Positions 37,528-62,311 of a DNA stretch of 64,000 nucleotides are shown in pieces. The DNA comes from Candidatus Nomurabacteria bacterium (lineage in GTDB: Bacteria; Patescibacteriota; Minisyncoccia; Phycocordibacterales; UBA2100). Positions within the stretch are counted from its first letter, which is position 1, and each line of letters starts with the position of its first letter. The notes beneath the pieces were generated by a model. That model made no database searches. It had not been told where the DNA came from and saw only the letters and a list, made by a program, of their open reading frames with translations. The stretch spans positions 1,699-65,698 of the forward strand of contig CALRHH010000004.1 of NCBI GenBank assembly GCA_943359395.1, in the 5' to 3' direction. The position numbers and the translations under genes were made by a program.

Positions 37528-37549
37528 CCGAGCAGTATAACAATTTCGG

Positions 37550-37622
37550 AGCCGCCTCGCGGGATCGAACCGCGGACCTTATCTTTACGAAAGATATGCT
37601 CTACCAACTGAGCTAAGGCGGC
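37550..37622 (-). tRNA. tRNA-Thr (CGU).
   Basis: Manual fold of GCCGCCTTAGCTCAGTTGGTAGAGCATATCTTTCGTAAAGATAAGGTCCGCGGTTCGATCCCGCGAGGCGGCT with anticodon loop TTCGTAA. Confidence 0.85.
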
Positions 37623-37784
37623 ACTACTGCGCTCCGGCTACACCGGAGCTTCGAAGTGCAAGTCGTAGTGAAAAGTACTACTGCTTGCCCTGCGAAGCTC
37701 ATGCACTGCTTGAGCGAAGAAGGCAGCTGAGGCGGCAAACAGGGATATCCTACGCTAAAAATGCTCGATTTCCAATTTATTTTG

Positions 37785-37856
37785 AGCCAGAGGAGAGAAT
37801 CGGACTCTCGACCTCCATCTTACCAAGATGGCGTTCTACCACTGAACTACTCTGGC
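37785..37856 (-). tRNA. tRNA-Thr (GGU) with an unusual T-loop.
   Basis: GCCAGAGTAGTTCAGTGGTAGAACGCCATCTTGGTAAGATGGAGGTCGAGAGTCCGATTCTCTCCTCTGGCT has anticodon loop TTGGTAA. The T-loop reads UCCGAUU rather than UUCRANY. Confidence 0.7.
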
Positions 37857-37872
37857 AATACGAGCGATACTA

Positions 37873-38538
37873 TCACGCGAGAGGATACTCCCACAATTCT
37901 TCAACGAGCGGGGCGACTGATGCATCATGTATGTCATTCGAGGTAATGGAAGTTTCGGAGAGAATCTTCCGCTCTATCTCAAGACCTATTTTTTTATATC
38001 CTGCGTACGCGGCACTCGCGTCTTCCACAGTTTGGTATCGATGGGTATAACGACCAATTGCCTCATCAAATCGATCCTCGAGACTGACGACGCCATGTGT
38101 AGCCACTCGGCAATCGGCGTACGCAACAACCTGCAACTCTCGTGAATCTCCTTGCGCGGTCCGCTCCATCTCAGAAAAACCGACTCGGTCGATAATTGAA
38201 ACAACGGAATCCGAAAGCCCAATTTCCTGCGCAATCGCGACACTTGCCGCATGAGCACTCGTTCCGTACTTTTGAACAAACTCCCTCTGCTTTCCCCTCC
38301 AATACTCCAAGCCCTCGGGCTCCAGCAAGTCTGGGTACAGGGTGAGGTCAAATTTTACAATGTTGCCCATGTCATGAAAGAGACACGCAAGGATGACGTC
38401 GTGCGCGTTGACAGGATTCTCAAAATTATCACAAATCAATTTTCCTACCGCAGCGACGCGCAGCTGATGCAGCTGCAAGCTCGGCATGATGGTATATGCC
38501 GCATAGACTTCGCGAGGAGTCTTCATGAGAGATGACAC
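37873..38538 (-). CDS. HD-domain phosphohydrolase.
   Basis: H..LFHDMGNIVKF HD motif and a later conserved D. Confidence 0.6.
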   Translation of the reverse strand: MSSLMKTPREVYAAYTIMPSLQLHQLRVAAVGKLICDNFENPVNAHDVILACLFHDMGNIVKFDLTLYPDLLEPEGLEYWRGKQREFVQKYGTSAHAASVAIAQEIGLSDSVVSIIDRVGFSEMERTAQGDSRELQVVAYADCRVATHGVVSLEDRFDEAIGRYTHRYQTVEDASAAYAGYKKIGLEIERKILSETSITSNDIHDASVAPLVEELWEYPLA

Positions 38539-39152
38539 TACGCCGCTTTCTCCATGTTGTGACGAAGAGGCTTCTCAGGTGAATTGTCGTTGGACGCCGC
38601 AGACGGGGCAGCATCTTTAATTCGTACAAAATTATACGTGGGATTCCCGGCCAAATGCTTGAAATGCTTCGTAAGCTCCGATCCCTCGACATCTAGGTGA
38701 GGATACCGCTCATCGGGCAAGTCTTTCTTTGCTGCATCAAGAAACGTCCGTATCATCTCGAGCTGGGAATTCTCTGGTACCGACGACCATGCCTCCTTGA
38801 GACGTGCCTGACGACCACCCGGATCTAGCTCGATGTACATAAACCCAACCACTTTATCGTTCTTTTTTGCAAGATAAATTGCTTCACGCTCGGCACCACC
38901 GCGCAGCTCCGCATGAATCGGGCTCAGAGCCCCCCTTCGCTCCGTCGCGGTATTCTTTTCATAAAGATTGTCGTTCGCGGCGCCCTGCACGTTGTACCGT
39001 AGCTGCCTAATTTGCGACTGGTGCTCAAGGAACTCAGCAAGCTCCACCCGCTCGACTGTAATCCCTGACATCGGCTCAGCACTCTCCGTCTTTTCCGCCT
39101 TCTTAAGCGGCCCTTCCATATCACCCCCCCTGTTGCGCAAAGACATATACAT
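38538..39152 (-). CDS. Hypothetical protein, possibly a GNAT-like fold.
   Basis: 204-aa ORF whose start overlaps the stop of the HD gene; motifs are weak. Confidence 0.35.
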   Translation of the reverse strand: MYMSLRNRGGDMEGPLKKAEKTESAEPMSGITVERVELAEFLEHQSQIRQLRYNVQGAANDNLYEKNTATERRGALSPIHAELRGGAEREAIYLAKKNDKVVGFMYIELDPGGRQARLKEAWSSVPENSQLEMIRTFLDAAKKDLPDERYPHLDVEGSELTKHFKHLAGNPTYNFVRIKDAAPSAASNDNSPEKPLRHNMEKAA

Positions 39153-39232: not shown

Positions 39233-40174
39233 ATGAATATGGCTGTCTCCAAGCGCTATTTTCAGAATTACATAGCTCTATTCCCTGCAAAATTCCGTCC
39301 TTCACTCACGGCAAAGCTTGACTACAAAAAGGTGCTGGACGCCGAGAAACGACTAAAGATTCCGACCCAGGTCTGGCTGGCGTTCCTGACACCGCCGGTT
39401 CAGGAAGCTGAGGAATATGTGCCGGAAAAATATAAACGCGTCTGGAAACTAAAAACAGAAATGCTAAGCAAACTTCCTCACCCGAAGGAGTTCTTGGACG
39501 TGCGCAACCCCCTCCACCACTCGAGTGAATGTGTGACACTTGCCCTTCTGGAAACCCTCTACGACCTTAATGAGAAAAAAGTATTGCTCGCCGAGGCTCG
39601 CTATCATGAGTGGCTTGACGTCGCCAATCATTTTGGCCTCTGGGCACTTCGATACATGCTCGAAGACGCAATCTTCAAGACATTCGACTCTGATAATTTC
39701 TCTCTTTTTGAGAGCGTCGTCGATAAGCAAATGTTTATTGAACAACATCTCGTCCTCGCTATCAGCGGAATTGTCAAAGACGCACTTGCTCAAGCGGGCC
39801 TCGATAATTTCTCACTGGAGAATAGACGCAAGAATATATACGGTGTCTACAAAAAGGTCGCACTCAAACAAAAAAATATAAATGAAATCTACGATATTCA
39901 CGGCTTTCGCATACTCACCTCATCAGAAAGTGACTGCCGAAAAGCCATAGAGGTCTTGCACCAACTATGGCGGCACTTCCCCGAGCGGTACAAAGACTAC
40001 ATCGCGGAGCCGAAGGCAAACGGATACCGCAGTATTCACACCGTTCTCTATAGCCTCGAAGGCAAACTTGTGGAATTCCAGGTGAGAACTCATGAAATGG
40101 ACCACATCGCCGCCTCAGGTCCCGCCAACCACGCGGAGTACAAGAAAAATCTCGGCAAAACTATTTCTTCTTAG
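39233..40174 (+). CDS. RelA/SpoT-family (p)ppGpp synthetase-like protein lacking the C-terminal regulatory domains and carrying a degenerate HD region.
   Basis: NRRKNIYGVYKKV, EIYDIHGFRILT, YKDYIAEPKANGYRSIHTVL and EFQVRTHEMDHIAASGPANHAEYK match the Rel synthetase core. There are no TGS or ACT domains (313 aa), and the HD motif is not conserved. Confidence 0.8.
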   Translation: MNMAVSKRYFQNYIALFPAKFRPSLTAKLDYKKVLDAEKRLKIPTQVWLAFLTPPVQEAEEYVPEKYKRVWKLKTEMLSKLPHPKEFLDVRNPLHHSSECVTLALLETLYDLNEKKVLLAEARYHEWLDVANHFGLWALRYMLEDAIFKTFDSDNFSLFESVVDKQMFIEQHLVLAISGIVKDALAQAGLDNFSLENRRKNIYGVYKKVALKQKNINEIYDIHGFRILTSSESDCRKAIEVLHQLWRHFPERYKDYIAEPKANGYRSIHTVLYSLEGKLVEFQVRTHEMDHIAASGPANHAEYKKNLGKTISS

Positions 40175-40955
40175 CTTTCCGTGTTTTGTTTACTTTGATT
40201 TCTTCGGAAGAGTACGCGTCCGCCATCTTCCAGCACAAGCCGAACATCTCGCGCATACTCGCAGCTATAAGTTTGCTCTTTACGATAATCGCAAGCTTCT
40301 CCGGAATCGAGAAGTACGCGACCTTGTCATCATAGACATTTATCTCAATCTCTATATTCAGTACCGATTTCGGCAACAGACGGCTCTCACGCAACTCTTC
40401 GAAATCCTTCTTCTGACGTGCGCGCGCCATCTTGGTATCAGGAAAAATCGCTCTAATCGGAATCTTCGCCGCTTTCCGGCGCTTGTAGTATTTCGATACA
40501 TACTCCGGCAAAATCGACTCGGTGTCGTCGATAGAGGCGAGGGCGAGGATTTCCGTCTTGCTGGAAAGCGTATCTTCGTATGCGGCGACTATTCCCTCCG
40601 CCCCTTCGTAAAACGCAATTTCCGGCTTCGTGAAAGAGGGATTCATGTAGTCCTCGAAGTGCTTCAGGTGCTTCTTGAAATTCGAGATATTGGACTCAAG
40701 CTTCATCTTGCCGTTCTCGAGGATGTTGACGAGGGTTCCAGGCTCTTGAGGCGTGAAAAAATCCTTCTCACGGGAGAATTTGCTCACGAATCCCCGGTCG
40801 AGGAGGTTGGTCAAAACGATGCTCACATCGAAAGCAGGAAGCTTTGTGTCCTTGCTTAAAGTGGCAATATCCTGCGTCCCCAGCTTAAGACAAGCCAAGT
40901 AGACCTCTGCCTCTTTGACATTGAGCCCTATATCCTGCAGTAACTTGCGAAGCAT
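40161..40955 (-). CDS. TrmB-family transcriptional regulator.
   Basis: N-terminal wHTH (IGLNVKEAEVYLACLKLG) plus a TrmB C-terminal domain. Confidence 0.7.
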   Translation of the reverse strand: MLRKLLQDIGLNVKEAEVYLACLKLGTQDIATLSKDTKLPAFDVSIVLTNLLDRGFVSKFSREKDFFTPQEPGTLVNILENGKMKLESNISNFKKHLKHFEDYMNPSFTKPEIAFYEGAEGIVAAYEDTLSSKTEILALASIDDTESILPEYVSKYYKRRKAAKIPIRAIFPDTKMARARQKKDFEELRESRLLPKSVLNIEIEINVYDDKVAYFSIPEKLAIIVKSKLIAASMREMFGLCWKMADAYSSEEIKVNKTRKAKKK

Positions 40956-40995: not shown

Positions 40996-43900
40996 TTAGC
41001 TTTCCATCCACGTGTCGGGGGTATTAGGCGTGCGCTCCACCACGCGCGAGAAACTGTCTATACTCGGATTTTTCTGTATCTCTTTTTTAAGAAATGCGAT
41101 GTGTATTTTTGCAATTGCCTCAAAAAGTTCATCAATATCCCTCTCTTCGTGCAGATAGTGGAAGGAAATGCGTACGGCGTTCTTACCTGGAAGGCATTGC
41201 TCAACAAGATATCCTTCCCGCTGGAGTGCGGTTTTGATGTACTCATCACGGATGATACCCGCTTTCACCCCTTCTTTATGTCGGACAATGCCGAGATTGG
41301 GAAATGTGACAGTGAGAATCCCGTTATAATCAAAACCTTTTCTGTGAACAGGGTAAACCACCTGGCATCCGAATTGTTTCTGAATCACGGGCTCATGGAT
41401 TACTGAATCCGTTATTTGTGTCCCAAATGGAAATTCAGGATTCGTGAGGAGTATTTCTGGATATTCATTTGTCTTCGAAATGGCATACCTGGTTAACTCT
41501 TGCATGCGATTCGCAATGCGTTCCCGTTGCGTCTGTACCTGCTCTCCGTCGTAAGGATTCCAGCTATCCACGCGGGAATTCTGAATCTGGAAAGCAATCG
41601 CAAGTGCAGCGACACGGCGGATGTCGACCGAGCTTTTGCCGGGGCTCAATTTTGCAATTGGATTATTGAGTATCTCGGAGTCAGTAATGTGCGCCAGCCA
41701 GTGATCCGGCCTACCGCTGATTCCCTGTACGTCGTGAACAGCGAACTGGCCATCAATGTATTCTGGGGGATATTCATCCTGTGCCGGGGTCGGGTCGAGT
41801 GACTTGCGCATCGCGAGCATCGCCACATTTTCTATACCGAGAGCTTTGGCCCCACTATTCAGATATATATCACAACCGAGTCGCGCTAGGTCGTTCTCCC
41901 CTCGGTCATTTCTACCAGCGCTTTGGCACCCATCGACAATAACCGGTACTCCGGGATAGCGTTCCTTGAACTTGTCGATGAGATCTCCCAATCCGTAGAT
42001 GCTCGGTGTCTTATTGCCCTCAATGACTCCCAGCGCATCTCCGAAACGGGTCTTACTACTCAACAACACTGCAGCGGGAAAACGTTGTTTTGCCTCAATA
42101 CGCTCTACCATCTCTCTGAAAATGGTGTCGACGTCTTTTGCTTTTCCGCGCCTCCTATCGTTACAATAAACGGCCTCGACTCCCGCCCCATGATTTGTGA
42201 AGGCGTCCGTCATTCCGTCAAACTCCTGATTAGAGACGAGAATGTAGTCTTCTTTTGAGATACGCGGGAAAAGTCGACTTACCACGTCGTTCATCGCCGA
42301 CGTCGCGCTCGGATAGAATACGAAACCATATTTGCCCTGCGTGCTGTAAAGTCTCTCGGCCTGCCGGAGAGCAAATTTGGTGATTGTGCTGTAGCTATTG
42401 GGGATACCATTCCAAATTGCGCACGCGCGGGATATCCATTCTCTTTTGGAATTCGTATCGACACCCGCGGCTGTATCAAAATTCTTCTTCAAGTTCTGTA
42501 TCTGTTCTTTTGACATATCGGACAGATCACGCGGCTTTATGAGGGGTTCGTTGGGATGCTTCCGCTTATCTTGCATATATGTATACGGGCCATTCTCGAG
42601 TACCTCTTCGTCGAACCACGTTTGACGTGATCGTGCAGTCAGCAACATTCTTATTGACTGATCCTCGAGCCCGAGGAGCGGTATGTCCATGTGTGGGTCG
42701 GTGTTGTCTAAAAACTCCTTAACGGAAGAAGCTATGATAGCGACTTTCTTTGGAAAGCTTTCATCCACCTTCTCCAGTTTATCCTCGGAAACTTGCATGC
42801 TGGGCATGTAAGACAGAAAAGAATAGAACTCCTGCCTGAGTGCGTCTTGCGTCACAACTCTTTTCGCGTCCACCGTACGGAGCAACACTGTAAAAGGATG
42901 AATGCCCCCCCTGTCTTCAGAGTGGACGAGGTTGTCTGTGACAAAGTCAGAAAGTCTTTCAATGGACGATCGAGTCTTCTTGGGATCGTCCTCTTTTCGT
43001 GTGCCCAAGCGTTCACTATTCGTAATTGCATCCTGAACTTTTTTAGCAATACTTTCGGGGAGTGTGCCGTCAGGACTCTTCGTACTTTTCTGTACAGATT
43101 TCAGCAACTCATCTACCCGTTCGGCATACAGTGCAGCATGATGGTTATTGAGAAACTGGGCGGCCTCAGCGACAAGTCCCCTCGGGACATCTTCGGACAT
43201 GAGGAGACCAAATTTGCCGACATCAAAGGGCGTATCGCTGCAATCATTCGTGAGCCATGCGTTCGTACCCCCTTCCTCCAAGAGCATCTGACGAAATACT
43301 CCAAATGGACTTGGGGGATCTTGCTCTGTATCCCATTGAGGTCTCTGGAATTCTTCCCGTTGTAAAAAGCGCGAAAGGGCTTTCTTCGACGCTTTGTCGA
43401 TTTGAGTCTTGGTTTCGCTATTGCCGGCTTTTCTCATTACGTTTGCTGTAATATCCGCGTACACGCCGAAGAAGCGGGACATGCTCTTGAAGAAATTACT
43501 TTCTGAGCCATCTTTCGTCTGACTCTCGATATTACGTGCTGTCACGAGTCTTCCCAATTTTGCATCCGTGTCGAGGGGGCGGCTAGTAGAGGCTCCTTCG
43601 GTACTAGCCGTGCTACACATGAACATGAGACGGATAATTGCCGCTGCCTCCTGACCGTACTTTAGGGCAGTCTCGCGAGCGAGCAACTGTACTCGGTGTG
43701 CTGTATTGATATTAAAGTTCTTTCGTGAGACCTGTTCACTCACAAAATCACTGAGCCACTCCTTTCCACCCTTCTCCCCTTCCTTCTTGACCTCTTCCTT
43801 AAATCCCAAGTCAACCTCTGACACAACTTCTTCCCCGAAAAACCTCCCTTTTATGTAAGACTCCAGGCCTTGGTTGGGGAGGCTCAGATTCAATGCGCCG

Positions 43901-44259
43901 CCCAGTCGTTCGATTACTCCGGGAGAAACCCCTTCCTGAAATAAGACATCGTATAGACCCGCAACATTTCTCACACTCGACAGGTGTTCCTGCACGTTCC
44001 GCAATATTCTTGAATAGTCAAACCCTTTTTCTCCCGTCCGCCTTTCTTTATGCGCTTCCATTTCATGCAGCTCGGTCAAAACCCTGAGAGCCTCCCTTTT
44101 TGCATCTTCAATATTCCCTTCCGAGGACGAAATCCTTTCCTTCGGCTTTATGCTATTTCTCCGTGGCTCCAACCCTTTCACCATACGTTGGATGGTACCA
44201 TCCACATGGTTGAGCCCTCTTCCTCCCTGTGCGTATTTCAGCCTGTATACGCAAACCAA
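40996..44259 (-). CDS. Large cytoplasmic protein (1087 aa). The N-terminal ~600 aa have no recognised domain; the C-terminal ~450 aa form an aminotransferase class-V-fold PLP-dependent enzyme-like domain.
   Basis: C-terminal VPVIVDGCQSAGRND (D/Q PLP-pyridine pair) and DIYLNSGAKALG (Schiff-base lysine context), matching cysteine desulfurase / class-V fold architecture. No TM helices and no known N-terminal motifs. Confidence 0.6.
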   Translation of the reverse strand: MVCVYRLKYAQGGRGLNHVDGTIQRMVKGLEPRRNSIKPKERISSSEGNIEDAKREALRVLTELHEMEAHKERRTGEKGFDYSRILRNVQEHLSSVRNVAGLYDVLFQEGVSPGVIERLGGALNLSLPNQGLESYIKGRFFGEEVVSEVDLGFKEEVKKEGEKGGKEWLSDFVSEQVSRKNFNINTAHRVQLLARETALKYGQEAAAIIRLMFMCSTASTEGASTSRPLDTDAKLGRLVTARNIESQTKDGSESNFFKSMSRFFGVYADITANVMRKAGNSETKTQIDKASKKALSRFLQREEFQRPQWDTEQDPPSPFGVFRQMLLEEGGTNAWLTNDCSDTPFDVGKFGLLMSEDVPRGLVAEAAQFLNNHHAALYAERVDELLKSVQKSTKSPDGTLPESIAKKVQDAITNSERLGTRKEDDPKKTRSSIERLSDFVTDNLVHSEDRGGIHPFTVLLRTVDAKRVVTQDALRQEFYSFLSYMPSMQVSEDKLEKVDESFPKKVAIIASSVKEFLDNTDPHMDIPLLGLEDQSIRMLLTARSRQTWFDEEVLENGPYTYMQDKRKHPNEPLIKPRDLSDMSKEQIQNLKKNFDTAAGVDTNSKREWISRACAIWNGIPNSYSTITKFALRQAERLYSTQGKYGFVFYPSATSAMNDVVSRLFPRISKEDYILVSNQEFDGMTDAFTNHGAGVEAVYCNDRRRGKAKDVDTIFREMVERIEAKQRFPAAVLLSSKTRFGDALGVIEGNKTPSIYGLGDLIDKFKERYPGVPVIVDGCQSAGRNDRGENDLARLGCDIYLNSGAKALGIENVAMLAMRKSLDPTPAQDEYPPEYIDGQFAVHDVQGISGRPDHWLAHITDSEILNNPIAKLSPGKSSVDIRRVAALAIAFQIQNSRVDSWNPYDGEQVQTQRERIANRMQELTRYAISKTNEYPEILLTNPEFPFGTQITDSVIHEPVIQKQFGCQVVYPVHRKGFDYNGILTVTFPNLGIVRHKEGVKAGIIRDEYIKTALQREGYLVEQCLPGKNAVRISFHYLHEERDIDELFEAIAKIHIAFLKKEIQKNPSIDSFSRVVERTPNTPDTWMES

Positions 44260-44295
44260 AAAGCCACCTTAACGGGTGACTTTTTGGTTCGCTAG

Positions 44296-44369
44296 CGCGA
44301 GTGACGGGGCTCGAACCCGCAGCCTCTCCCGTGACAGGGGAGTGCTCTAACCAATTGAGCTACACCCGC
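44296..44369 (-). tRNA. tRNA-Asp (GUC).
   Basis: GCGGGTGTAGCTCAATTGGTTAGAGCACTCCCCTGTCACGGGAGAGGCTGCGGGTTCGAGCCCCGTCACTCGCG with anticodon loop CTGTCAC and discriminator G73. Confidence 0.8.
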
Positions 44370-44411
44370 ATTCGACGCGTCATTCTAGCAGAAACTTATG
44401 ACTGCGTCGTG

Positions 44412-44485
44412 TGTCGGGGGAGAGACTCGAACTCTCGACCTAGCGCTTATGAAACGCTCGCTCTAACCGGCTGAGCTACCCCGAC
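44412..44485 (-). tRNA. tRNA-Met (CAU), elongator type or tRNA-Ile2-like.
   Basis: GTCGGGGTAGCTCAGCCGGTTAGAGCGAGCGTTTCATAAGCGCTAGGTCGAGAGTTCGAGTCTCTCCCCCGACA with a fully paired 1:72. Confidence 0.8.
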
Positions 44486-48600: not shown

Positions 48601-50625
<2,025 letters not shown>

Positions 50626-50631
50626 CTAGAC

Positions 50632-51291
50632 CTAGTAGTGAAGTTCCACGGAACGCTGCAATGCCCGCGCACTCGTCAATATTGACGCGCAATTCGTACT
50701 ATACCCGTCCGCACGGATAATGGTGCGTATTGAGTCTGTCGGCGCTCCCGTAACGCACACCCCGTCTGCGTTAAACGTCCCCTGACACTTTGTGACAGAT
50801 ACCTGCGCGCAGAGATTGCCGGAAATCGTAGCGTCCTCAAAAAGATCCATCTTTTGGGACGTCATCGTATACGGATAGTACGGAGGTGCCGTCGGTCGAC
50901 CTTCTGCCGCTAAGAGTTTTGTGTCACACGTTGGGTTGGGGTTATTACACGACGCATTTATCAAATCCGTCGAACTTGCAAAATAGTTGCAGCGGAAATC
51001 CCAATAGAGGGCACACTCAGCTGCGGTGTCAGCAGCATAAAACGCGAATTGCGAGTCCCGTCCGATGGCTGAAAGTAAAACCTGTTTCTGTGCGATGCCG
51101 AAAATCGCAGCACCGACCGCGAGAACAATAGACGAAACGAGCGCGGCCAGAAGCAGCGTAAAGCCTGAATTCGCCGCGCGGCGCCGCCCTAGGCGGTTTG
51201 ACTGTCGGCCTGCGGCCGATGGGAGAAGATTCACGTCGGAACGAACACGTTCCGACGAGATAAGCTGTGTCATCCGGTGTATAAATTTCAT
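50632..51291 (-). CDS. Type IV pilin-like protein (pseudopilin / minor pilin) with a long leader.
   Basis: RRRAANSG|FTLLLAALV prepilin cleavage/methylation motif preceded by a ~40-aa arginine-rich leader. Confidence 0.7.
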   Translation of the reverse strand: MKFIHRMTQLISSERVRSDVNLLPSAAGRQSNRLGRRRAANSGFTLLLAALVSSIVLAVGAAIFGIAQKQVLLSAIGRDSQFAFYAADTAAECALYWDFRCNYFASSTDLINASCNNPNPTCDTKLLAAEGRPTAPPYYPYTMTSQKMDLFEDATISGNLCAQVSVTKCQGTFNADGVCVTGAPTDSIRTIIRADGYSTNCASILTSARALQRSVELHY

Positions 51292-51292
51292 A

Positions 51293-51943
51293 CTATTGCT
51301 GTCCTACGCCGTCATCGACCCAGCGATACATATTCTCCGAAATGGTGAATGAACGCTCTTGAATAGGTCCGGTCTGCCATGTGACGGTCACCGTAACACG
51401 TATCTCGTCCATGCTCCCCGTCACCTGGTAGGCGTGTAGAGTCCGCGTGAAATATGTCGGTGTCCACGCACCCAGGTCATCGCCAAGCCCCGGATAGCCG
51501 TACAGAGTCAGGTTTGTCTGAAGTGGCGGACATGTTCCATTGCACCGAACGATGGCGGTCGACGCGTCTCCCTTGCGACCATCGATTGTAAACGGCTCAT
51601 TGAGTCGAGGAATGAGTCCGAAGATGTCCGGTGCCCCTTCAGCACTTCCCGCGATAACGAGAATTTGGGAATCTCGAATACTGCGCACAGCCTCGATTGC
51701 CTCCTGTGCAAGGTAGAAAGCCGTTATTTGGTCTCGCGCATAGTACGCAGAACCGAGACTTTTCGACGCGAGAGCCATCGGAGACACCACCGCGACAGAC
51801 AAGAGCATCACCGCGACAAGCGTCTCGATGAGAGTAAAACCAGCTTGTAGCTTGTAGCTTGTAGCTGACAGAGGCCAGAATCTTCTGAATTTTTTGCTTA
51901 CTACAAGCTGTAAGCTGTAAGCTGTAAGCTTGAATTCCATCAT
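51293..51943 (-). CDS. Type IV pilin-like protein (pseudopilin) with a long leader.
   Basis: KLQAG|FTLIETLVAV prepilin motif. The leader contains a heptamer inverted repeat. Confidence 0.7.
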   Translation of the reverse strand: MMEFKLTAYSLQLVVSKKFRRFWPLSATSYKLQAGFTLIETLVAVMLLSVAVVSPMALASKSLGSAYYARDQITAFYLAQEAIEAVRSIRDSQILVIAGSAEGAPDIFGLIPRLNEPFTIDGRKGDASTAIVRCNGTCPPLQTNLTLYGYPGLGDDLGAWTPTYFTRTLHAYQVTGSMDEIRVTVTVTWQTGPIQERSFTISENMYRWVDDGVGQQ

Positions 51944-52647
51944 AGATCAAGTACTCGTTGGACTGCCGCGGCTTGAAGATGGAAAGTCGTACGGCTGGAG
52001 GATCCCGGAGCCCCGGCGCTCCCCTTTATAACAATAACGACTTTAGGCTGTACCGTGTCGCCACGCGTCGTACCTACTACGTAAAAAAGCATTTCATCGA
52101 TAGTGACTTCGGGAGCGGTGATGGGTGCGGCACCTGAAATCGAACCGCTCGTTGACCTCTCCAGCCGGTGGGTTACGGTATTGAAATTATATATCCAGTG
52201 CGGGTCTGACGTACTGCCGAAAGACTGGAACTCGAACGTGGTACTCCCTCCCGTGCAATCATTCGGACCGCCCGTATTACCCGTGCATCCAGTTGAGCCG
52301 TCGAAATCATTGCCCATGCGGATAGAGCGCGCCATACCGTCGAGCGCGATGTTGAGGTTATTCATGACGGATTGTAGCGCCTGCGCTTTCCTATTTGCAC
52401 TCACGAGAGCGAGAAGCGCCCCGACACAAACCACCATGACGATTGAGAATAATGCAATCGCCACAACCATTTCAACGAGTGTAAATCCTGAATTCGCCGT
52501 GAGGCGCCTGACCCCGCCGTGAGGCGCCCGAAGGGGTCGCAGGTCAGCTTTGCTGGCCGGAGACGGGTCACGTCGGAATGAGAACATTCCGACGAATCTA
52601 TATTCCGACGTCAAAAATCTTGCGAGCTTGTGTTTGATCTTATCCAT
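51940..52647 (-). CDS. Type IV pilin-like protein (pseudopilin) with a long leader.
   Basis: RRLTANSG|FTLVEMVVAIALFS. The leader MDKIKHKLARFLTSE is homologous to MKFIHRMTQLISSE of the pseudopilin at 50632..51291. Confidence 0.7.
   Translation of the reverse strand: MDKIKHKLARFLTSEYRFVGMFSFRRDPSPASKADLRPLRAPHGGVRRLTANSGFTLVEMVVAIALFSIVMVVCVGALLALVSANRKAQALQSVMNNLNIALDGMARSIRMGNDFDGSTGCTGNTGGPNDCTGGSTTFEFQSFGSTSDPHWIYNFNTVTHRLERSTSGSISGAAPITAPEVTIDEMLFYVVGTTRGDTVQPKVVIVIKGSAGAPGSSSRTTFHLQAAAVQRVLDL
52505..52550. repeat. Family-2 repeat in inverted orientation plus a partial tandem copy, lying in frame inside a pseudopilin leader.
   Basis: CCGCCGTGAGGCGCCTGAC then CCCGCCGTGAGGCGCCCGAAGGGGTC. 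It encodes RPLRAPHGGVRRL of the leader of the pseudopilin at 51940..52647. Confidence 0.65.
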
Positions 52648-52648
52648 A

Positions 52649-53344
52649 CTATTGTGAAGTCTCCCTTTGTACTGATATCTGACCGTTTGCCCCGACTATC
52701 ACACTCATGACATCGCCGCGGGGGGAGAGGAGAATAATTCGAGCGCTTTCAGCGCAAATGCCAGCGCCATAGACACATCCCACTCCGTTTGCACTTATCC
52801 ACGCGTCCGCCTCGGGACGTTTAAAAACAATGTCGAGCTCTGAGGCCGGGCTCACTCCCACGCAGGTAGCGGCGTCAGCTCCCTCAGGAGCGCAGAGACC
52901 GGATATTCTGTAACCATTACGAATAGTATACGGTGACGGAGAAACGTTCTCGTCGGGTGAATCGAAGAAGCCGTCCTTGTCGACATCCGCAAAAAGTTCG
53001 TAATGCAATGGGTCGTCGATATTGAAGTGCATACCGTACCCGGAGGAAAAATTTCCCGCCCCGTATCTCTGAACAGAGATGCCGAATACCTGCGCTTGCC
53101 GGACTGAAAGCGCCACATCGTAGGCCAGATTTTCAAGTTGTACAATTCCACCAAAGCGATTGTTGTTGACCAGCACTACGGACGTCACGACGATAATAAT
53201 CCCCGTCACGACTACGAGCTCGACCAAAGTAAACCCCGTTAGAGAGGCCCTTCGGGGTGCACGAGAAACCAAACCGTTTTTCTCTAACGGGGTAAAAGCC
53301 CGAAGACGTGAGAGGTGTCTATGCCGTAGAGTGATACGAACCAT
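52649..53344 (-). CDS. Type IV pilin-like protein (pseudopilin). The start is uncertain: the ORF extends to 53557, candidate starts are the ATG at 53344 and a TTG at 53252.
   Basis: RRASLTG|FTLVELVVVTG prepilin motif. The long ORF extension overlaps pilD and is unlikely to be translated. Confidence 0.6.
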   Translation of the reverse strand: MVRITLRHRHLSRLRAFTPLEKNGLVSRAPRRASLTGFTLVELVVVTGIIIVVTSVVLVNNNRFGGIVQLENLAYDVALSVRQAQVFGISVQRYGAGNFSSGYGMHFNIDDPLHYELFADVDKDGFFDSPDENVSPSPYTIRNGYRISGLCAPEGADAATCVGVSPASELDIVFKRPEADAWISANGVGCVYGAGICAESARIILLSPRGDVMSVIVGANGQISVQRETSQ

Positions 53345-54189
53345 ATGATGATGCAACTTAGAATGAGAAACGGACCAAATGGAATCTCGCTTTTCATTGT
53401 AAACCCTCCGCGGGGCTTTCCGCGCGAAGTTATCCCAAGTGTGTACAGCGCTTCTGCAATGTGCGGCAAAGGTAGAAGTATGAGTATGGACACGATGGCA
53501 CCCACGACAAATGCTCCGAAGACGGCAAGCAAGCCGAGAGCGGGACCGAGTAACCACCCGATGCCGAGGGCAAGCTTAGCATCCCCCAATCCCATCCATC
53601 TCCCACGGGAGAACAGCCACAAAGCAAAAAGTGGTGCGGCGACAACAGGTCCCGCAAAGATGAACCACAACAATGTGTACTCGTCCGAGAACGGCTGTAA
53701 AAATTGAGAAACGAATGCGAGTCCGGCGAACGCGTACACCCACTCGTCGGGGATTATCGTGTGTAATATATCGTAAGTGGTAATACATACGAAAACGGCA
53801 AGAACGCAAAGGTGTATGAGGATGAGCGCAACTCCGGGCAATGATAGACCGAGGGATGAGGAGCCAACCCAGAAACCCAAGAGTCCGAAAAGGAGTCCTG
53901 TCGCGGCCTCGACAAGCGGATACTGAACAGAGACGCGGCCTCGACACGCCCGGCATCTTCCTCCGAGCTCCAACCACGAGAAAACGGGTATCATGTCGTA
54001 CCATCGAAGTTGCGTGCCACAGCTCATACATCCACTTCGGCCGTTGAGAGAGCGAGCCCCGTGGCGCAGAATGACGACGTTGAGAAAACTCCCGACGATA
54101 AGGCCAAGAAGTCCGAAGAGAAGTCCGAAGCTCATTGGCTCACAGTATACCCCGTGGGATAAACGCATCAGCGAGACGAAGAGAATCAT
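53284..54189 (-). CDS. pilD: Prepilin peptidase (A24 family); the true start is probably the ATG at 54135.
   Basis: CMSCGTQLRWYDMIPVFSWLELGGRCRACRG zinc motif and a polytopic peptidase domain with catalytic aspartates. The N-terminal ORF extension overlaps a repeat element. Confidence 0.85.
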   Translation of the reverse strand: MILFVSLMRLSHGVYCEPMSFGLLFGLLGLIVGSFLNVVILRHGARSLNGRSGCMSCGTQLRWYDMIPVFSWLELGGRCRACRGRVSVQYPLVEAATGLLFGLLGFWVGSSSLGLSLPGVALILIHLCVLAVFVCITTYDILHTIIPDEWVYAFAGLAFVSQFLQPFSDEYTLLWFIFAGPVVAAPLFALWLFSRGRWMGLGDAKLALGIGWLLGPALGLLAVFGAFVVGAIVSILILLPLPHIAEALYTLGITSRGKPRGGFTMKSEIPFGPFLILSCIIIWFVSLYGIDTSHVFGLLPR

Positions 54190-54251
54190 ATCCTCATGAC
54201 GAACCTGGTGCGTCTAAGATACATCCACATTTCCTATCCCATGGGGTATAC
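54145..54251. repeat. Inverted pair of the family-1 motif upstream of pilD.
   Basis: GTATACCCCGTGGGATA at 54145..54161 and TATCCCATGGGGTATAC at 54235..54251. Confidence 0.75.
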
Positions 54252-54303
54252 AAGCAAAACACCGCGTCAGACACGGTGTTTTGCTTTCCGTACAGAAGCT
54301 AGA

Positions 54304-54807
54304 CTACGGTCTTACGTCGTAGACAACACCATCGGCGGACCCGTTGAATCCTCCGTTGACTGCGGTGAAGTCAGCGTTGGTCGTCCATGTACCACCGGTA
54401 CATTGGCTGTTTAGGACCGCATCGTAGTCGATGTCCGAGCTCAAAGCACTGTGACCAACCGTCTCAAGCTTGGCGCCCAAGTGATAGCTTGTGCAATTCG
54501 TGCCGCTCCCGATCGCCTCGTAAGCGTAGCTGAGGAGACTCAAAGGGTCTCTCGGTAGTGCGGAGATGAAACCATCAGCCACCAAGTCTGTTGCATATTG
54601 CGCCGACGTTGGATATTTGCTGTTCGCATCATAATAGAGCTCAAGAGCAAGCTGAATTTGCTTGATGTCGGAAACGCGGCGTGCATCTCGGCCCTTTTTA
54701 CGTGCACTATTCAACGAGGCAAGAACTATTGAGGAAAGGATACCGATAATGGCGATGACCACGAGGAGCTCTATCAAAGTGAAACCCTTCTTATAAGATG
54801 TCTTCAT
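54304..54807 (-). CDS. Type IV major pilin (PilA-like).
   Basis: MKTSYKKG|FTLIELLVVIAIIGILSS, a canonical short leader and N-methyl-Phe site. Confidence 0.85.
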   Translation of the reverse strand: MKTSYKKGFTLIELLVVIAIIGILSSIVLASLNSARKKGRDARRVSDIKQIQLALELYYDANSKYPTSAQYATDLVADGFISALPRDPLSLLSYAYEAIGSGTNCTSYHLGAKLETVGHSALSSDIDYDAVLNSQCTGGTWTTNADFTAVNGGFNGSADGVVYDVRP

Positions 54808-54977
54808 AATATCGTAAAGTTTACTTGCTAAATTACCCTAGTAACGAGGATGACTACCATTGTATACCTATACGCCCCCCATCTAAAGGCGCCTGTGGAT
54901 AATGAATCTTCACCCTTCTAGGGTTTGTGGTTAATTTACGACGCACGAACGTACTCGTTCGTGCGTGACACTCCTCG

Positions 54978-55025
54978 TATCGGCTTTTAGCCGACACTCG
55001 GCCCCCATGGGCGCCTCACGGCGGT
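54978..55025. repeat. Family-2 small repeat element, intergenic, between pilC and the major pilin.
   Basis: TTTTAGCCGACACTCGGCCCCCATGGGCGCCTCACGGCGG. Confidence 0.7.
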
Positions 55026-55026
55026 G

Positions 55027-56235
55027 TCAAAACGCCGAAGCAATATTGTAGATTGGCAACAGTACGGACGCGAGAAGTATCGCGACGCCGAGAGCCAAAA
55101 TCACAATCATCAAAGGCTCAATGAGGCTGACGAGCGTATCCACGGCGTTGTTTACTTCGCGCCGGTAAAACCGCGCCATAGTTTCGAGTATCTTTCCCAT
55201 ATTTCCTGTCTCTTCTCCAATTTTGACCATGGCCACGACGATACCGGGAATTTCTGGATGTTTGCGCAGAGCCTCGGAAAGGGGCATGCCGCCTTTGACG
55301 TCGACGGCCGCATCGGCGAGCACTTTCTCGTAGACCGCATCCCCCACCACGAGTCCCGTGATCTCCAGGCCGCGCAATACCTGAATACCGCTGCGAAGCA
55401 TCGTCGAGAGGTTATCCGCGATGCGCGAAAGAAATATCTTGCGGTAAATATTGCCGATAGCCGGCGTTTCGAGGCGCGCGCGAGAGAGTACTTCTCTTCC
55501 CCGCGCCGTGCGCGAGAACCGATACAGAAAAATACCGCTCACCACGAGAAGTATGAGGACGAGGAAAATGTAGTGGGTAAAGAATTGCGACATCCCTATG
55601 ACCACTTTGGTATAAAGCGGCAGATCTTGCCCGACTTCCGAAAGCATTCCTGCGAGCTGCGGAATGACGAGGGTCATCATGAGGACCATGACCACGACGA
55701 ACGTAAGCATGATGAAAGCCGGATAAACCAAAGCGTTGCGAGCTTTCTGAGTAAGTTCAAAATTCCTGTCCAAATACTCGGCGAGGAAGGAAAATGTTTC
55801 GTCGAGCTTTCCGCTCTCTTCACCCGCGCGGACCATATTTACGTAAAACGAGGAAAAGATTTCCGGATGTCGCGCGAGGGCTGCGGAAATACTGCTTCCG
55901 CTTTGGAGATCGTTGCCGATTATTGTGAGCTTCTCTCCCAAAGCCGGCGTCCGTGCTTCGGCCGCGAGGAGCCTAAAGGCACGGAGAGCAGATACCTGAG
56001 CCTCAAAGAGTGTCGTTATCTGGCGGGAGAGCATCACGACGTCCGCATTCGTCACTCGGTCAAAAAGCGCGAGGCGTTTCGAGAGAAGAGACGCGCCCTC
56101 GGCCGGGTCGATGCCTGATATTACGAGTCCGCGCCGCTGTAAAGCCGCAATTGCGATATCCATGTTGACCGCATCGATAGTGCCTTGCCGCTCATTGCCT
56201 TCCGCATCGAGGGCAGTGTAGGTAAAAATAGCCAT
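55027..56235 (-). CDS. pilC: Type IV pilus assembly platform protein PilC (GspF family).
   Basis: Two T2SS_F repeats. Confidence 0.9.
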   Translation of the reverse strand: MAIFTYTALDAEGNERQGTIDAVNMDIAIAALQRRGLVISGIDPAEGASLLSKRLALFDRVTNADVVMLSRQITTLFEAQVSALRAFRLLAAEARTPALGEKLTIIGNDLQSGSSISAALARHPEIFSSFYVNMVRAGEESGKLDETFSFLAEYLDRNFELTQKARNALVYPAFIMLTFVVVMVLMMTLVIPQLAGMLSEVGQDLPLYTKVVIGMSQFFTHYIFLVLILLVVSGIFLYRFSRTARGREVLSRARLETPAIGNIYRKIFLSRIADNLSTMLRSGIQVLRGLEITGLVVGDAVYEKVLADAAVDVKGGMPLSEALRKHPEIPGIVVAMVKIGEETGNMGKILETMARFYRREVNNAVDTLVSLIEPLMIVILALGVAILLASVLLPIYNIASAF

Positions 56236-56241
56236 ACAAAA

Positions 56242-57306
56242 TCAGAGAAGCTTCTGCAGCACGTTCGGGTTAAGGGAGTGCTGGTACGCGCTTTCGGGAG
56301 TAATCTCGCCGCGAGCAACCAGTTCGGCAAGAGAACGGTTCATATCTATCATGCCTTCGGTCGAGCCGGTTTCTATCACGGTGTTTATTTCGTGAGAGCG
56401 CTTTTCGCGTATGAGGTTCGCAACTGCCTTGTTATTAATGAGCAGCTCATAGCATGGAATGCGGCCACCGGAGATACGTGGTATGAGTCGCTGAGAGAAG
56501 ATTCCGGCGAGACTAGCCGCAAGCTGCAGGCGTATTTGGTCCTGCTGGCCCGGAGGGAATGTATCAATGATGCGGTCAATGGTCTGCGCGGCGTTGTTGG
56601 TATGCAAGGTCGATAGGACGAGGTGCCCAGTTTCTGCGGCTGTTACCGCTGCCGCCATGGTCTCTTGCCCGCGCATTTCACCGACTAAAAGGACATCGAC
56701 ATCTTCGCGAAATGCCGACAGGAGTGCCGAGGCGAAGTCCTTTGTATCGATGCCAACCTCACGCTGGTCTATGAGCGATTGTTTTGGTTCGAAAATGTAT
56801 TCGATAGGGTCCTCAATGGTTATGATGTGCTCCATTCGTTCGCTATTGATGAGTTCAACGAGAGACGCGAGTGTTGTCGTTTTCCCCTGCCCCACGGGAC
56901 CCACAACCAAAAAGAACCCCTGCTCTTTTCGCGCGAAGGAGGTGAGTATGTCGGGCAAGTTGAGGTCTTTGATACTGAGAATCTGTCTCGGTATGAGCCG
57001 GAGTACGACGCCGACTGAACCACGCTGTACGAAAGCATTCCCTCGAAAGCGATACCTGTCAGGGCTTTCGTATGCGAAATCCAACTCCTGATGTTCTTTG
57101 AATTTCGCTTCGAGCCCAGGGGAAACGAGGGCCTGCAGAAGCCCTCTTGTATCCTCTGGAGTTAAAATGGGTTCTTTGAGCATCGGAGAGAGCTCACCCG
57201 ATACGCGTATGGTCGGGTGCGCCCCAGTAGACAAATGCAAGTCAGAGCCCCCCTCGTGCACAAGCACGTTGAAATATTTTTTTAGAAGTCCAGGATAATC
57301 ATTCAT
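56242..57306 (-). CDS. pilT: Twitching-motility retraction ATPase PilT.
   Basis: GPVGQGKTTT Walker A, an Asp box, and the AIRNLIRE-like PilT motif (ANLIRE). Confidence 0.9.
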   Translation of the reverse strand: MNDYPGLLKKYFNVLVHEGGSDLHLSTGAHPTIRVSGELSPMLKEPILTPEDTRGLLQALVSPGLEAKFKEHQELDFAYESPDRYRFRGNAFVQRGSVGVVLRLIPRQILSIKDLNLPDILTSFARKEQGFFLVVGPVGQGKTTTLASLVELINSERMEHIITIEDPIEYIFEPKQSLIDQREVGIDTKDFASALLSAFREDVDVLLVGEMRGQETMAAAVTAAETGHLVLSTLHTNNAAQTIDRIIDTFPPGQQDQIRLQLAASLAGIFSQRLIPRISGGRIPCYELLINNKAVANLIREKRSHEINTVIETGSTEGMIDMNRSLAELVARGEITPESAYQHSLNPNVLQKLL

Positions 57307-57333
57307 AACCGTTATAAAGAAATGATACCAGTA

Positions 57334-57735
57334 CTATGCTCTATGTTTTACGAGCGCGTCACTCACCATGTTGACAACTTCGGACGGAATCATGCTCGCC
57401 TTGACGACGTAGCCCGTAGCACCGAGTTCTGCGGCTTTTGTTCTCTCTGACTCGTCGCTTTGGTTCGTAAGCGTTATCTTGAGAACTCCGTCCGCGAGAT
57501 GTTCGTCGGAGAGCGCCTTCAAAAATGCGAATCCGTCGAGTTCGGGCATCGTGAGGTCAAAGAGGATAACCTCCGGCTTGTACCCTCCCCGCAAAATACC
57601 GAGGGCTTGCTTCGCGGATAGACATGTCTCGACGGTGTAACCGTTTTGAGAAAATTTCATTCCGTACATATCCAAAAGAAATTTGTCGTCGTCGACGAGA
57701 AGTATGGGGCCTTTTTGCACGGGAGTATCGTTCAT
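57334..57735 (-). CDS. Stand-alone CheY-like response regulator receiver domain.
   Basis: LLVDDDKFLL ... ILFDLTMPELDGF ... K. Confidence 0.8.
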   Translation of the reverse strand: MNDTPVQKGPILLVDDDKFLLDMYGMKFSQNGYTVETCLSAKQALGILRGGYKPEVILFDLTMPELDGFAFLKALSDEHLADGVLKITLTNQSDESERTKAAELGATGYVVKASMIPSEVVNMVSDALVKHRA

Positions 57736-59468: not shown

Positions 59469-59474
59469 AGTATG

Positions 59475-59816
59475 TTAGCGGTTTGCGGGCGTCTGGGTTT
59501 GCGTATTGCTAGTGCTTGGAGAAGTAAGCGGGGCAAAAGGATTCGGGCGGCCGACAGGCTCCGACACGATGTCAGTCGAGAAGTCTTTCAATTGAGTGAA
59601 TGTGGTTTGTGAGAAAATCGTGGCGTCCAATTTGACAGCGCGTAGGGTGAGTAGTGTCGCGACTATTCCCGGGCTTGCCTTACTGCTTCCTTCTGCCGTC
59701 GGCGTCGAGTCGAGATTGGGCAGTTCCGAGGAAGGAGCCAAACCGTACCAAACGAGGCCGGCAACGACGAGGCCAGAGAAGACGAGAAGAAGCTTGTGCC
59801 GAAGGAATGTTTGCAT
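59475..59816 (-). CDS. Hypothetical membrane-anchored protein in the pilus cluster (PilP-like position).
   Basis: One TM helix plus an S/T/P-rich tail. Confidence 0.4.
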   Translation of the reverse strand: MQTFLRHKLLLVFSGLVVAGLVWYGLAPSSELPNLDSTPTAEGSSKASPGIVATLLTLRAVKLDATIFSQTTFTQLKDFSTDIVSEPVGRPNPFAPLTSPSTSNTQTQTPANR

Positions 59817-59817
59817 A

Positions 59818-60495
59818 TTATTTGAGCCAGTACGTTCGAAGAGTCATGTTGTAAGTGTAAAACGGCTCAGACGGTCTCGTTGCGACTGCATTGGCCGTAT
59901 TCGAGGTCGGAAATGCATTCGTTGCGCTTGAGACGACGGCTGCATTTCCTGCGGCAGGAGCGACAGTGAGTGAGACTAAGTCCACGATGCGTAAACTCGA
60001 TTCAAGATTGGAAAGAAATTTCACGAAATCGGCGTACGTAGCGGTTGTACTGAATGTCAGTGTAAGCGAATCAAATTTTTGACTCGAGGCGCCAATAGCG
60101 CCGAGAGCGGTCTGATTTTTTACGGTTTGATTTTGCGCACTTGAAACATCGACATTTTGGAGTGCAATTCCGTGACGCTCCGCGAGTTTGTCTAGGTCGA
60201 GAATGAGACGCACGTTGTCGACATGGTCGGGAAGCAATTTCTGCAAACGATCGAGGTCTGTTGTATTAAACGTATTGAAGCGGGAGAGCAGTGTTTGTCT
60301 TAATTTTTGTAATTCCGCTGCTTTGTCGAGGGCCGCATCATTCTGCGCAATCTCGGCCCGCAGGGTCTGAGAATCATCATACGTCGGCTTTGTGTACCAG
60401 AAGAATACGCCTCCGGCGAGTACTACACCAACAATTGCAAAGATAGGTTTCATATAATTAGTTAGTGGGTTCTGTTGCTCCCTGCTGAGGGGCAT
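59818..60495 (-). CDS. pilO: PilO-like pilus assembly protein.
   Basis: N-terminal TM helix, coiled-coil and periplasmic domain; gene order pilM-pilN-pilO. Confidence 0.5.
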   Translation of the reverse strand: MPLSREQQNPLTNYMKPIFAIVGVVLAGGVFFWYTKPTYDDSQTLRAEIAQNDAALDKAAELQKLRQTLLSRFNTFNTTDLDRLQKLLPDHVDNVRLILDLDKLAERHGIALQNVDVSSAQNQTVKNQTALGAIGASSQKFDSLTLTFSTTATYADFVKFLSNLESSLRIVDLVSLTVAPAAGNAAVVSSATNAFPTSNTANAVATRPSEPFYTYNMTLRTYWLK

Positions 60496-61138: not shown

Positions 61139-61141
61139 ACA

Positions 61142-62290: not shown

Positions 62291-62311
62291 CGCAAAATTA
62301 TATCATGTATA

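Follow-up and report, generated by a model that had tools for sequence, protein, structure and literature searches.

A hypervariable two-domain protein with a predicted pyridoxal phosphate-dependent half, paired with a TrmB-family gene in Patescibacteria

Introduction

What kind of gene keeps the residues of an enzyme active site and yet differs, between closely related genomes, over most of its encoded sequence? This question is raised by a locus in a stretch of 64,000 nucleotides from Candidatus Nomurabacteria bacterium (contig CALRHH010000004.1 of assembly GCA_943359395.1, positions 1,699 to 65,698), which we call the window. The longest open reading frame (ORF) of the window encodes a protein of two domains, the C-terminal one of which is related to pyridoxal phosphate (PLP)-dependent cysteine desulfurases. 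It lies beside genes for a TrmB-family winged-helix protein, a Rel-type alarmone synthetase (Rel), a divergent GNAT-like acetyltransferase and an HD-domain phosphohydrolase. We refer to it as the large gene, and to individual loci and proteins of relatives by numbers preceded by L and P.

NifS/SufS enzymes normally evolve slowly and serve housekeeping functions, and variability of the kind described below is usual in surface antigens, toxins and defence genes. An enzyme with a fixed active site that varied in the manner of surface or conflict genes would be a rare case.

Results and discussion

A hypervariable cassette between conserved genes

The large gene is a hypervariable cassette, with breakpoints at the ends of the ORF and with allele types that are incongruent with the flanking genes. 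When loci are grouped by their neighbouring genes, L034, L037, L039, L041, L032, L033 and L027 form a tight group, in which identities are 98–100% for FtsE, 94–99% for TrmB, 90–94% for RF2, 85–92% for Rel and 84–92% for the NUDIX protein. The same group holds at least five types of the large gene, and between types the encoded proteins are 27–43% identical, in both domains. Judged by their flanks, the window and L040 stand further off (Rel 75–79%; FtsE of the window 93%), yet they carry the type found in L034 and L037, to which they are 77% identical in the C-terminal domain and 60–66% in the N-terminal domain. Over nine loci, divergence of the large protein is uncorrelated with that of Rel (Spearman 0.15, Mantel p 0.31).

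At the nucleotide level, blastn aligns the flanks of L034 and L039 at 82–89% identity. The upstream alignment ends ~80 nt short of the start codon and the downstream one begins ~16 nt past the stop codon, and the 3.2-kb ORF between them shows no detectable similarity. Many of the allele types come from a single sample series (Ga0209542 contigs). Within a type, the N-terminal domain evolves about twice as fast as the C-terminal domain and far faster than Rel; L034 and L037 are 62% identical in the former, 82% in the latter and 90% in Rel.

Two further genes of the locus vary strongly. The HD proteins are 47–59% identical among genomes whose FtsE is 98–100% identical, and identity of the GNAT-like protein to its counterparts ranges from undetectable to 67%, the sequences being unalignable between types. 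Variants of these two genes do not co-vary with the type of the large gene. The variable unit is the large gene itself; the GNAT gene is hypervariable too, and the HD gene is fast-evolving.

Loci carry one family member each, the distant L054 excepted, and the window has no paralog. Paralogs as a source of the variation were rejected on these grounds, tandem copies being present only in L054; a neighbour of 1106 residues in L006 is an unrelated surface protein. Diversification by a diversity-generating retroelement was rejected on the pattern alone, as the whole 3.2-kb ORF has diverged and not a short repeat; a reverse transcriptase or template repeat was not searched for. The swapping of alleles, incongruently, between conserved flanks points to diversifying or frequency-dependent selection, which we infer to be the cause of the variability. 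The allele pairs available are either identical or too diverged for dN/dS estimation.

A remodelled desulfurase-type domain

The protein divides near the motif KKNFDTAAG, after which the PLP domain occupies ~505 residues, or ~47% of the large protein. The first-pass annotation of this DNA, made from the sequence alone, had recognised a class V PLP domain at the C-terminus; the class stands, on the evidence of Pfam and of a family profile searched against the Protein Data Bank (PDB), and the domain is larger than the third of the protein then assigned to it. Residues are numbered here from the ATG at 44184, and adding 25 gives the 1087-residue numbering of that annotation.

The sole significant Pfam match of the protein is to Aminotran_5 (PF00266; 27.2 bits, cut-off 21.5) and covers only residues 759–822 of the 1087-residue ORF; PF00266 matches 30 of the 45 family members. 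Searching the PDB sequences with the single protein gave no match, desulfurases being reached by family profiles only. Matches of the 45-member profile are nearly all cysteine desulfurases (SufS/CsdB, NifS-like, IscS and CsdA), the best being 8ztp with an E-value of 2.9e-16, and the same search also draws the cystine lyase C-DES, SepCysS and EgtE-type lyases. Every one of these PDB matches falls at profile positions of at least 525. Based on these alignments, the C-terminal domain is a predicted descendant of the desulfurase (NifS/SufS) branch of class V.

Conservation was assessed on an alignment of 45 full-length members, whose identity to the window protein goes down to 16%. Besides the start Met, seven columns are invariant in all 45: R713, G715, D751, Q754, R758, K780 and R1005. 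The motifs VIVDGCQSAG and NSGAKALG, which had led to the original class V assignment, are indeed the most conserved sites of the family, and D776, Q779 and K805 of the 1087-residue numbering are without exception. D751 and Q754 align with the VDGAQ or VDATQ segment of SufS-type chains, and R1005, which lies in RISFH, aligns with the Arg of RISL or RVSY in 1ecx and 8ztp. In this fold, the C-terminal Arg of the R-I-S motif binds the α-carboxylate of the substrate. The C-terminal half is thus predicted, almost certainly, to bind PLP and an α-amino acid.

Other parts of the site depart from the desulfurase pattern. R713 and R758 have no counterpart in SufS, and, when aligned with 1ecx and 8ztp, the large protein lacks ~21 residues at the place of the NifS catalytic loop. 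A candidate catalytic cysteine, C997, stands 8 residues before R1005 in 33 of the 45 members, including the window, and is otherwise replaced by Asp, Arg, Ser or Thr. Directly after the strand that carries the PLP lysine, the domain has a hypervariable insertion.

An N-terminal domain without recognised relatives

No Pfam, NCBIfam or PADLOC model scored above threshold on the N-terminal half, and no PDB sequence matched it in any member of the family. An AlphaFold2 model built from 6 sequences was poor (pLDDT 58), whereas an alignment of 18 sequences gave a confident one, in which the domain is a single all-alpha unit (pLDDT 82.6, pTM 0.84). A Foldseek search of this model against viral structures returned nothing at E<=0.001. 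The modelled fold has no recognisable solved counterpart and is a candidate for a new protein fold family. The lack of a known match claimed in the first-pass annotation has therefore held in the profile, PDB sequence and viral-structure searches run, none of which assigned this part to a known domain; its length is ~555 residues, not ~600.

The conserved motifs of the domain are VYADIT, NPW...TPFD..KFGLL.S.DVPRGL, IHPF.VLLR..DP.K[IV]V and DP.LD.PLLG...SIR.LL, among which we recognised no metal-binding or nucleotide-binding signature. Not one of its Cys residues is invariant, which speaks against a built-in persulfide acceptor, and its acidic character (pI ~5.3–6.5) speaks against simple nucleic-acid binding. 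Transfer of sulfur or an amino group to a macromolecule that the N-terminal domain would hold, as suggested in the first-pass annotation, is a possible candidate function.

Pairing with a TrmB-family gene

Wherever a contig passes the end of the large gene, a TrmB gene follows on the same strand. This order was seen in ~27 distinct contexts, over identities of the large protein from 80% to ~20%, with a gap that is usually ~40 nt, and the convergent Rel gene is almost always next where contigs reach further. Conservation of the neighbourhood in related genomes, which had been put forward as a check, is thus found for the large gene and TrmB, mostly with Rel, and is specific to them. The 40-nt spacing on a common strand suggests that the large gene and TrmB are probably co-transcribed.

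The pairing survives considerable change around it. Outer flanks of the locus differ in L005, L006, L017, L053 and L054, and the HD gene has shifted to a position directly upstream of the large gene in L011, L012 and L044. A class I S-adenosylmethionine (SAM)-dependent methyltransferase of ~255–280 residues is inserted between the large gene and TrmB in L041 (6122-6943), L049 (810-1649), L051 (500-1339) and L053 (8749-9516), an insertion that recurs in several unrelated allele types. In L054 (2539-10566), a tandem pair of P0043 (1149 residues) and P0042 (1521 residues) lies 5' of TrmB, the only paralog case seen, in a distant lineage. In L046 (1052-1903) and L047 (117-977) the large gene is absent, and a class IV PLP aminotransferase (155 bits) stands directly 5' of a TrmB that is 74% identical. 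Taken together, these changes argue for a linkage that exceeds inherited gene order.

TrmB of the window aligns with archaeal TrmBL2 over its full length (residues 4–245), weakly (E 0.008). TrmBL2 is a chromatin-like global DNA binder of archaea. The window TrmB is 81–92% identical to those of Kaiserbacteria-like relatives, and identity is 94–99% inside the genus-level group; a specific regulator would not usually be so strongly conserved. Rel, which is 59–78% identical between the window and its relatives, covers positions 128–320 of the 687 in TIGR00691, that is, the tail of the hydrolase domain and the synthetase domain. The HD protein could be the hydrolase partner of this small synthetase.

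TrmB, the Rel-like synthetase and the HD protein had been named correctly from the sequence, as confirmed by Pfam and NCBIfam, and the gene then listed as hypothetical is the divergent GNAT. The window copy has no Pfam match itself and finds the L039 copy weakly by tblastn (22% identity, E 3e-06); the counterparts are at 8806-9369 in L039 and 6503-7051 in L006.

Size of the family and its hosts

A word search of 5.8 billion clusters yielded six relatives only, and when 1.84 billion representatives were searched exhaustively with an HMM, 53 proteins were obtained at E<=0.001. A further homology search with the 45-sequence profile, over a capped set of candidates, contributed one more protein. 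Members are nearly all 950–1150 residues long, and most match the profile across both halves. The HMM matches listed are long two-part proteins or short fragments, none of them resembling a single-domain class V aminotransferase or desulfurase of ~400 residues. With 53 members in 1.84 billion representatives and a strict TrmB pairing, the gene is not a common protein of the candidate phyla radiation (CPR) without neighbourhood specificity.

The named metagenome-assembled genomes (MAGs) that carry the large gene all belong to Patescibacteria (CPR), and two of them (L029, L031) are Candidatus Kaiserbacteria, of the Parcubacteria group. A scan of GTDB species representatives with patterns of the close subfamily found no relative. 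The pattern DGCQSxGRND, a back-translated active site, found 14 stretches, and for three of these, L027, L029 and L031, both tblastn and the family HMM confirmed membership. Viral contigs yielded no relative.

We note that L027 (CAZQGK010000046.1) is labelled 'uncultured Candidatus Saccharibacteria', and that its TrmB and Rel are 90% and 76% identical to those of the window. Since L027 is as close to the window as the Kaiserbacteria MAGs are, this label is probably wrong.

Proposed function and alternatives

We propose, with moderate confidence, that the large gene encodes a soluble two-domain PLP enzyme of desulfurase type that performs C–S cleavage or a like reaction, takes its specificity from the N-terminal domain and is encoded in a TrmB-linked hypervariable cassette. 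The NifS/SufS-type half would have kept the Lys of the Schiff base, the cofactor-holding Asp and Gln, and the carboxylate-binding Arg. It would have been remodelled by the shortening of the catalytic-cysteine loop, by the exchange of the SufS His for Tyr or Phe, and by two new invariant Arg residues predicted to line the site. Such a site would carry out PLP-dependent C–S cleavage, of the desulfurase or C–S lyase type, on cysteine or an anionic cysteine-like compound; put more broadly, we infer C–S cleavage, or another PLP reaction of α-amino acids, on an anionic substrate. The helical 555-residue domain most probably sets the specificity for a partner or target. The large gene and the TrmBL2-like gene would probably form one transcript, with Rel, GNAT and HD alongside.

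Several observations weigh against this proposal. The chemistry rests on remote homology, and the SufS model of NCBIfam, TIGR01979, scores far below threshold (21.4 bits, cut-off 475.1), as does PRK09295 (11.9 against 661). C997 is missing in 12 of the 45 members, including types within the same genus-level group (Asp in P0016, for example), so that persulfide formation cannot be a mechanism of the whole family. At the position after the conserved Glu, where SufS has His, the window has Phe and most members have Tyr, His being present in 1 of 45. No SufE, SufU, IscU or SufBCD gene was found in the ~30 loci examined or among the large ORFs scanned in the 64-kb window. The TrmB adjacency may partly be inheritance in a fairly narrow clade, and the variability itself could stem from weak constraint combined with recombination, and not from positive selection.

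The next candidate is a conflict or host-interaction system, in which a hypervariable enzyme, together with GNAT and HD, would face an evolving partner (a phage, the host of the symbiont or a competitor), and TrmBL2 and Rel would form the conserved regulatory backbone. We regard it as unlikely, though it is the strongest of the alternatives. It would account for the cassette-like variability with its sharp breakpoints, for the many types in the sample series Ga0209542, and for GNAT and HD proteins that diverge far faster than housekeeping genes; in addition, Rel matches the PADLOC candidate system PDC-S33 (54 bits), via its synthetase domain, and LAGLIDADG ORFs adjoin the locus in two lineages (L006, L012). 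However, PADLOC has no match for the large protein, TrmB, GNAT or HD, viral contigs lack the family, and the gene has a fixed position 5' of TrmB in every examined contig that carries it, rather than a sporadic one. The slow evolution of Rel and TrmB is that of core genes; Rel is 75–92% identical across the group and always present, unlike a sporadic toxSAS toxin. GNAT and HD types are, moreover, independent of the type of the large gene.

A related reading, about as unlikely, is a new kind of diversifying system of episymbiotic CPR bacteria. Exchangeable alleles would be held under balancing or diversifying selection, the 555-residue domain would recognise an evolving target of the host, a phage or a competitor, and the fixed active site would modify or deplete something; GNAT and HD might be co-players, and TrmBL2 and the alarmone synthetase fixed controls. 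If the variability does reflect interaction with hosts or phages, the locus offers a testable entry to the largely unknown lifestyle of CPR symbionts.

A role in the biosynthesis or breakdown of small molecules is doubtful. The large protein would then be a PLP enzyme, for instance an aminotransferase or lyase, that converts a metabolite derived from an amino acid, works with an optional SAM methyltransferase and GNAT, and is under TrmB control. The methyltransferase between the large gene and TrmB in L041, L049, L051 and L053 agrees with such a role, and so do the GNAT gene close by, the class IV aminotransferase (155 bits) that precedes TrmB in L046 and L047 where the large gene is lacking, and the PdxJ-PNPOx fusion and alanine racemase that neighbour it in L005. 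The two extra invariant Arg residues likewise suggest an anionic substrate. Differences of 60–70% between congeneric genomes are, by contrast, abnormal for a metabolic enzyme, the extra 555-residue domain is left unaccounted for, and the nearest solved relatives by sequence are desulfurases and not aminotransferases.

A housekeeping SufS/NifS desulfurase for Fe–S clusters or tRNA thiolation, with a lineage-specific extension, is improbable. SufS/CsdB and NifS are the best PDB relatives, the window's own subfamily has a Cys near the catalytic-loop position, and neither another desulfurase nor any SUF or ISC gene was seen among the large ORFs scanned in the 64-kb window, although a canonical SufS may sit outside it. 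Against this stand the score for TIGR01979 given above, the loss of the Cys in several types, the truncated loop, the replaced His and the lack of adjacent acceptor or scaffold genes; the divergence between close genomes is also too extreme for an essential housekeeping enzyme. This explanation fits the data poorly, as does that of a mobile island.

The latter goes back to the first-pass annotation, in which the five genes between tRNA-Thr and tRNA-Asp were suggested to form an accessory or island-like module of slightly lower GC content than its flanks. tRNA genes do lie on either side, and the GC content of the segment is indeed slightly lower than that of the window (0.490 against 0.515). 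This value falls inside the spread of the 2-kb bins of the window (0.487–0.557), and the tetranucleotide profile deviates mildly, 3 of 58 windows of equal size being as extreme. A horizontally acquired island is very improbable. All close relatives share the gene order and have collinear outer flanks, with NUDIX at one end and RF2-FtsE-FtsX-CTP synthase at the other; TrmB and Rel are syntenic core genes that rank among the most conserved of the region; no integrase or recombinase family is matched by any of the five genes; and no relative was seen in which the site between the tRNA genes is empty.

Comparison with known enzymes

SufS/CsdB enzymes (PF00266; 8ztp, 1i29, 5xt5) are the best profile relatives, with E-values down to that of 8ztp. 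The large protein has the same order of motifs, namely the phosphate-binding S-A-T, D..Q, S-G-x-K and the C-terminal R-[IA]-S, and in most members also a Cys shortly before the Arg. This Cys–Arg loop has 15 residues in E. coli SufS, against 8 in the large protein. In contrast to SufS/CsdB, the large protein has the 555-residue N-terminal domain, the invariant R713 and R758, a Cys that is not universal and Tyr or Phe in place of His; it has no SufE or SufU nearby and is hypervariable between close genomes.

With NifS/IscS-like enzymes (1ecx, 1p3w) it shares the fold family, and the segment FPN...L...G...RISxxxxxxxxDID.L aligns well with 1ecx. The flexible loop of ~21 residues that carries the catalytic Cys of NifS is absent, and the N-terminal domain and evolutionary behaviour differ. 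Class V C–S lyases that do not depend on a Cys, C-DES (1elq/1n2t) and the hercynylcysteine sulfoxide lyase EgtE (8iry), are matched by the profile with E-values from 5.7e-06 to 2e-03. As they cleave C–S bonds without a catalytic Cys, the fold is capable of what the Cys-less types would require. These lyases are single-domain proteins of defined pathways, without the N-terminal domain, a TrmB linkage or reported hypervariability.

Two precedents bear on the extra domain. In MOCOS/ABA3, a NifS-like PLP domain is fused to a domain that receives or directs sulfur, a C-terminal MOSC domain of known family; the additional domain of the large protein lies instead at the N-terminus, is all-alpha and has no match. 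PLP enzymes of the SelA, SepSecS and SepCysS type act on tRNA-bound amino acids, and their extra domains hold the macromolecular substrate. SepCysS (2e7i) is a weak match of the profile (E 1.2e-04). Unlike in these enzymes, the N-terminal domain of the large protein is acidic, in the pI range given above, and of unrelated fold, the only link to tRNA being the coincidental tRNA genes nearby.

The catalytic domain belongs to a known superfamily, whereas the N-terminal domain, the fixed pairing with a TrmBL2-like gene and, most notably, the hypervariability of an enzyme in the manner of a cassette appear undescribed. A literature search found no description of the family or locus; one report of a hypervariable CPR gene deals with a nucleotide repeat, in a protein of another kind (PMC6851277). 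Apart from the new protein space that the N-terminal domain adds, the strict pairing is of practical use, being a simple marker with which loci can be found and typed in metagenomes.

Coding sequence and features of the locus

As the first-pass annotation had stated, the largest gene of the window is the ORF at 40996-44259; on the minus strand it gives 1087 residues from a TTG codon, and the runner-up has 764. Residue 26 of this translation, encoded by the ATG at 44182-44184, is the first residue in all five full-length homologs. This shared Met start makes it the most likely true start, with a predicted product of 1062 residues. The ATG is preceded by a GGAGG-like site at ~33 nt and by an in-frame GTG at 21 nt, which keeps the choice of start codon provisional. 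In agreement with the earlier claim, no transmembrane helix was detected in the whole protein (maximum 19-residue Kyte-Doolittle mean 1.03). A signal peptide is likewise absent, and the two halves range from mildly acidic to neutral. Coordinates are collected in Table 1.

Table 1. Positions in the window of the large gene, its domains and motifs, and the neighbouring features.
Feature	Position	Strand	Basis and remarks
Large protein, coding sequence	40996..44184	-	ORF list and homolog starts; mechanical ORF reaches TTG at 44259
N-terminal ~555-residue all-alpha domain (model)	42520..44184	-	Fold without recognised match
C-terminal ~505-residue domain, divergent NifS/SufS-like class V PLP type (predicted)	40996..42519	-	PF00266; family profile against PDB
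Motif SSKTRFGD with family-specific invariant R713 and G715	42037..42060	-	45/45; replaces the SufS HVSNVLGT strand in the 8ztp alignment
Motif DGCQSAGR: D751, predicted pyridine-N partner; Q754, predicted O3' partner; R758, family-specific	41911..41934	-	Each 45/45
Predicted PLP Schiff-base lysine K780 (K805 in 1087-residue numbering), motif SGAKALG	41845..41847	-	45/45; aligned to the Lys of SufS SGHK/SAHK
C997-LPGKNAV-R1005: candidate catalytic Cys in shortened loop and carboxylate-type Arg	41170..41196	-	R1005 45/45, C997 33/45
Upstream boundary	44185..44485	-	110-nt leader with hairpin 44265-44278, tRNA-Asp 44295-44369, tRNA-Met 44411-44485
TrmB-family (TrmBL2-like) winged helix-turn-helix protein	40161..40955	-	Pfam TrmB 40 bits; 40 nt 3' of the large gene, same strand
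Small Rel-type alarmone synthetase, 313 residues, without TGS/ACT	39233..40174	+	RelA_SpoT 118.8 bits; convergent with TrmB, 14-nt overlap of 3' ends
Divergent GNAT-like acetyltransferase	38538..39152	-	Acetyltransf_1 in counterparts L039 (29.0 bits) and L006 (24.8 bits), cut-off 20.7
HD-domain phosphohydrolase	37873..38538	-	Pfam HD 32.4 bits

The tRNA positions given in the first-pass annotation are right within one base (tRNA-Thr 37784-37856 and tRNA-Asp as in Table 1), and further tRNA genes flank them outward, at 37548-37622 and 44411-44485. The hairpin between tRNA-Asp and the large gene is GC-rich with A- and T-runs on each side and resembles a bidirectional terminator. No riboswitch or known leader RNA was found 5' of the large gene. 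A promoter scan gave no sigma-70-like site, and its 4 terminator-like matches were no excess over a shuffled control.

Gene content of the window and side observations in relatives

The gene content of the window is CPR-like, with a type IV pilus cluster, LigA, GatCA, RF2, FtsEX, CTP synthase, a Cu-ATPase and a GH18 hydrolase. The pilus cluster (50600-62300) looks complete, with PilM, two T2SSE ATPases, T2SSF, pseudopilins and a prepilin peptidase, the last assigned by synteny with L001. Elsewhere in the window are the GH18 hydrolase, a TIG/PG-binding surface protein, an M10 metalloprotease, and the Cu-ATPase with a DsbD-HMA protein. This whole set is typical of episymbiotic CPR bacteria.

Among relatives, the divergent upstream genes of L005 (547-3903), whose large protein is 46% identical, encode a fusion of PdxJ with PNP oxidase (PLP synthesis and salvage) and a PLP-dependent alanine racemase. 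In L007 (1-1757), a second set of HD, GNAT-like and truncated Rel (residues 2–210) genes lies 5' of the large gene, besides the normal set 3' of it; this reflects a rearrangement or duplication at the locus, or else a chimeric assembly of co-existing variants. Free-standing ORFs resembling LAGLIDADG homing endonucleases, with faint to weak Pfam matches, occur just upstream of the locus in L006 (414-1049) and L012 (202-843), and a small GIY-YIG ORF lies downstream in L011 and L012. Double-strand breaks made by enzymes of the LAGLIDADG or GIY-YIG type could promote exchange of the cassette.

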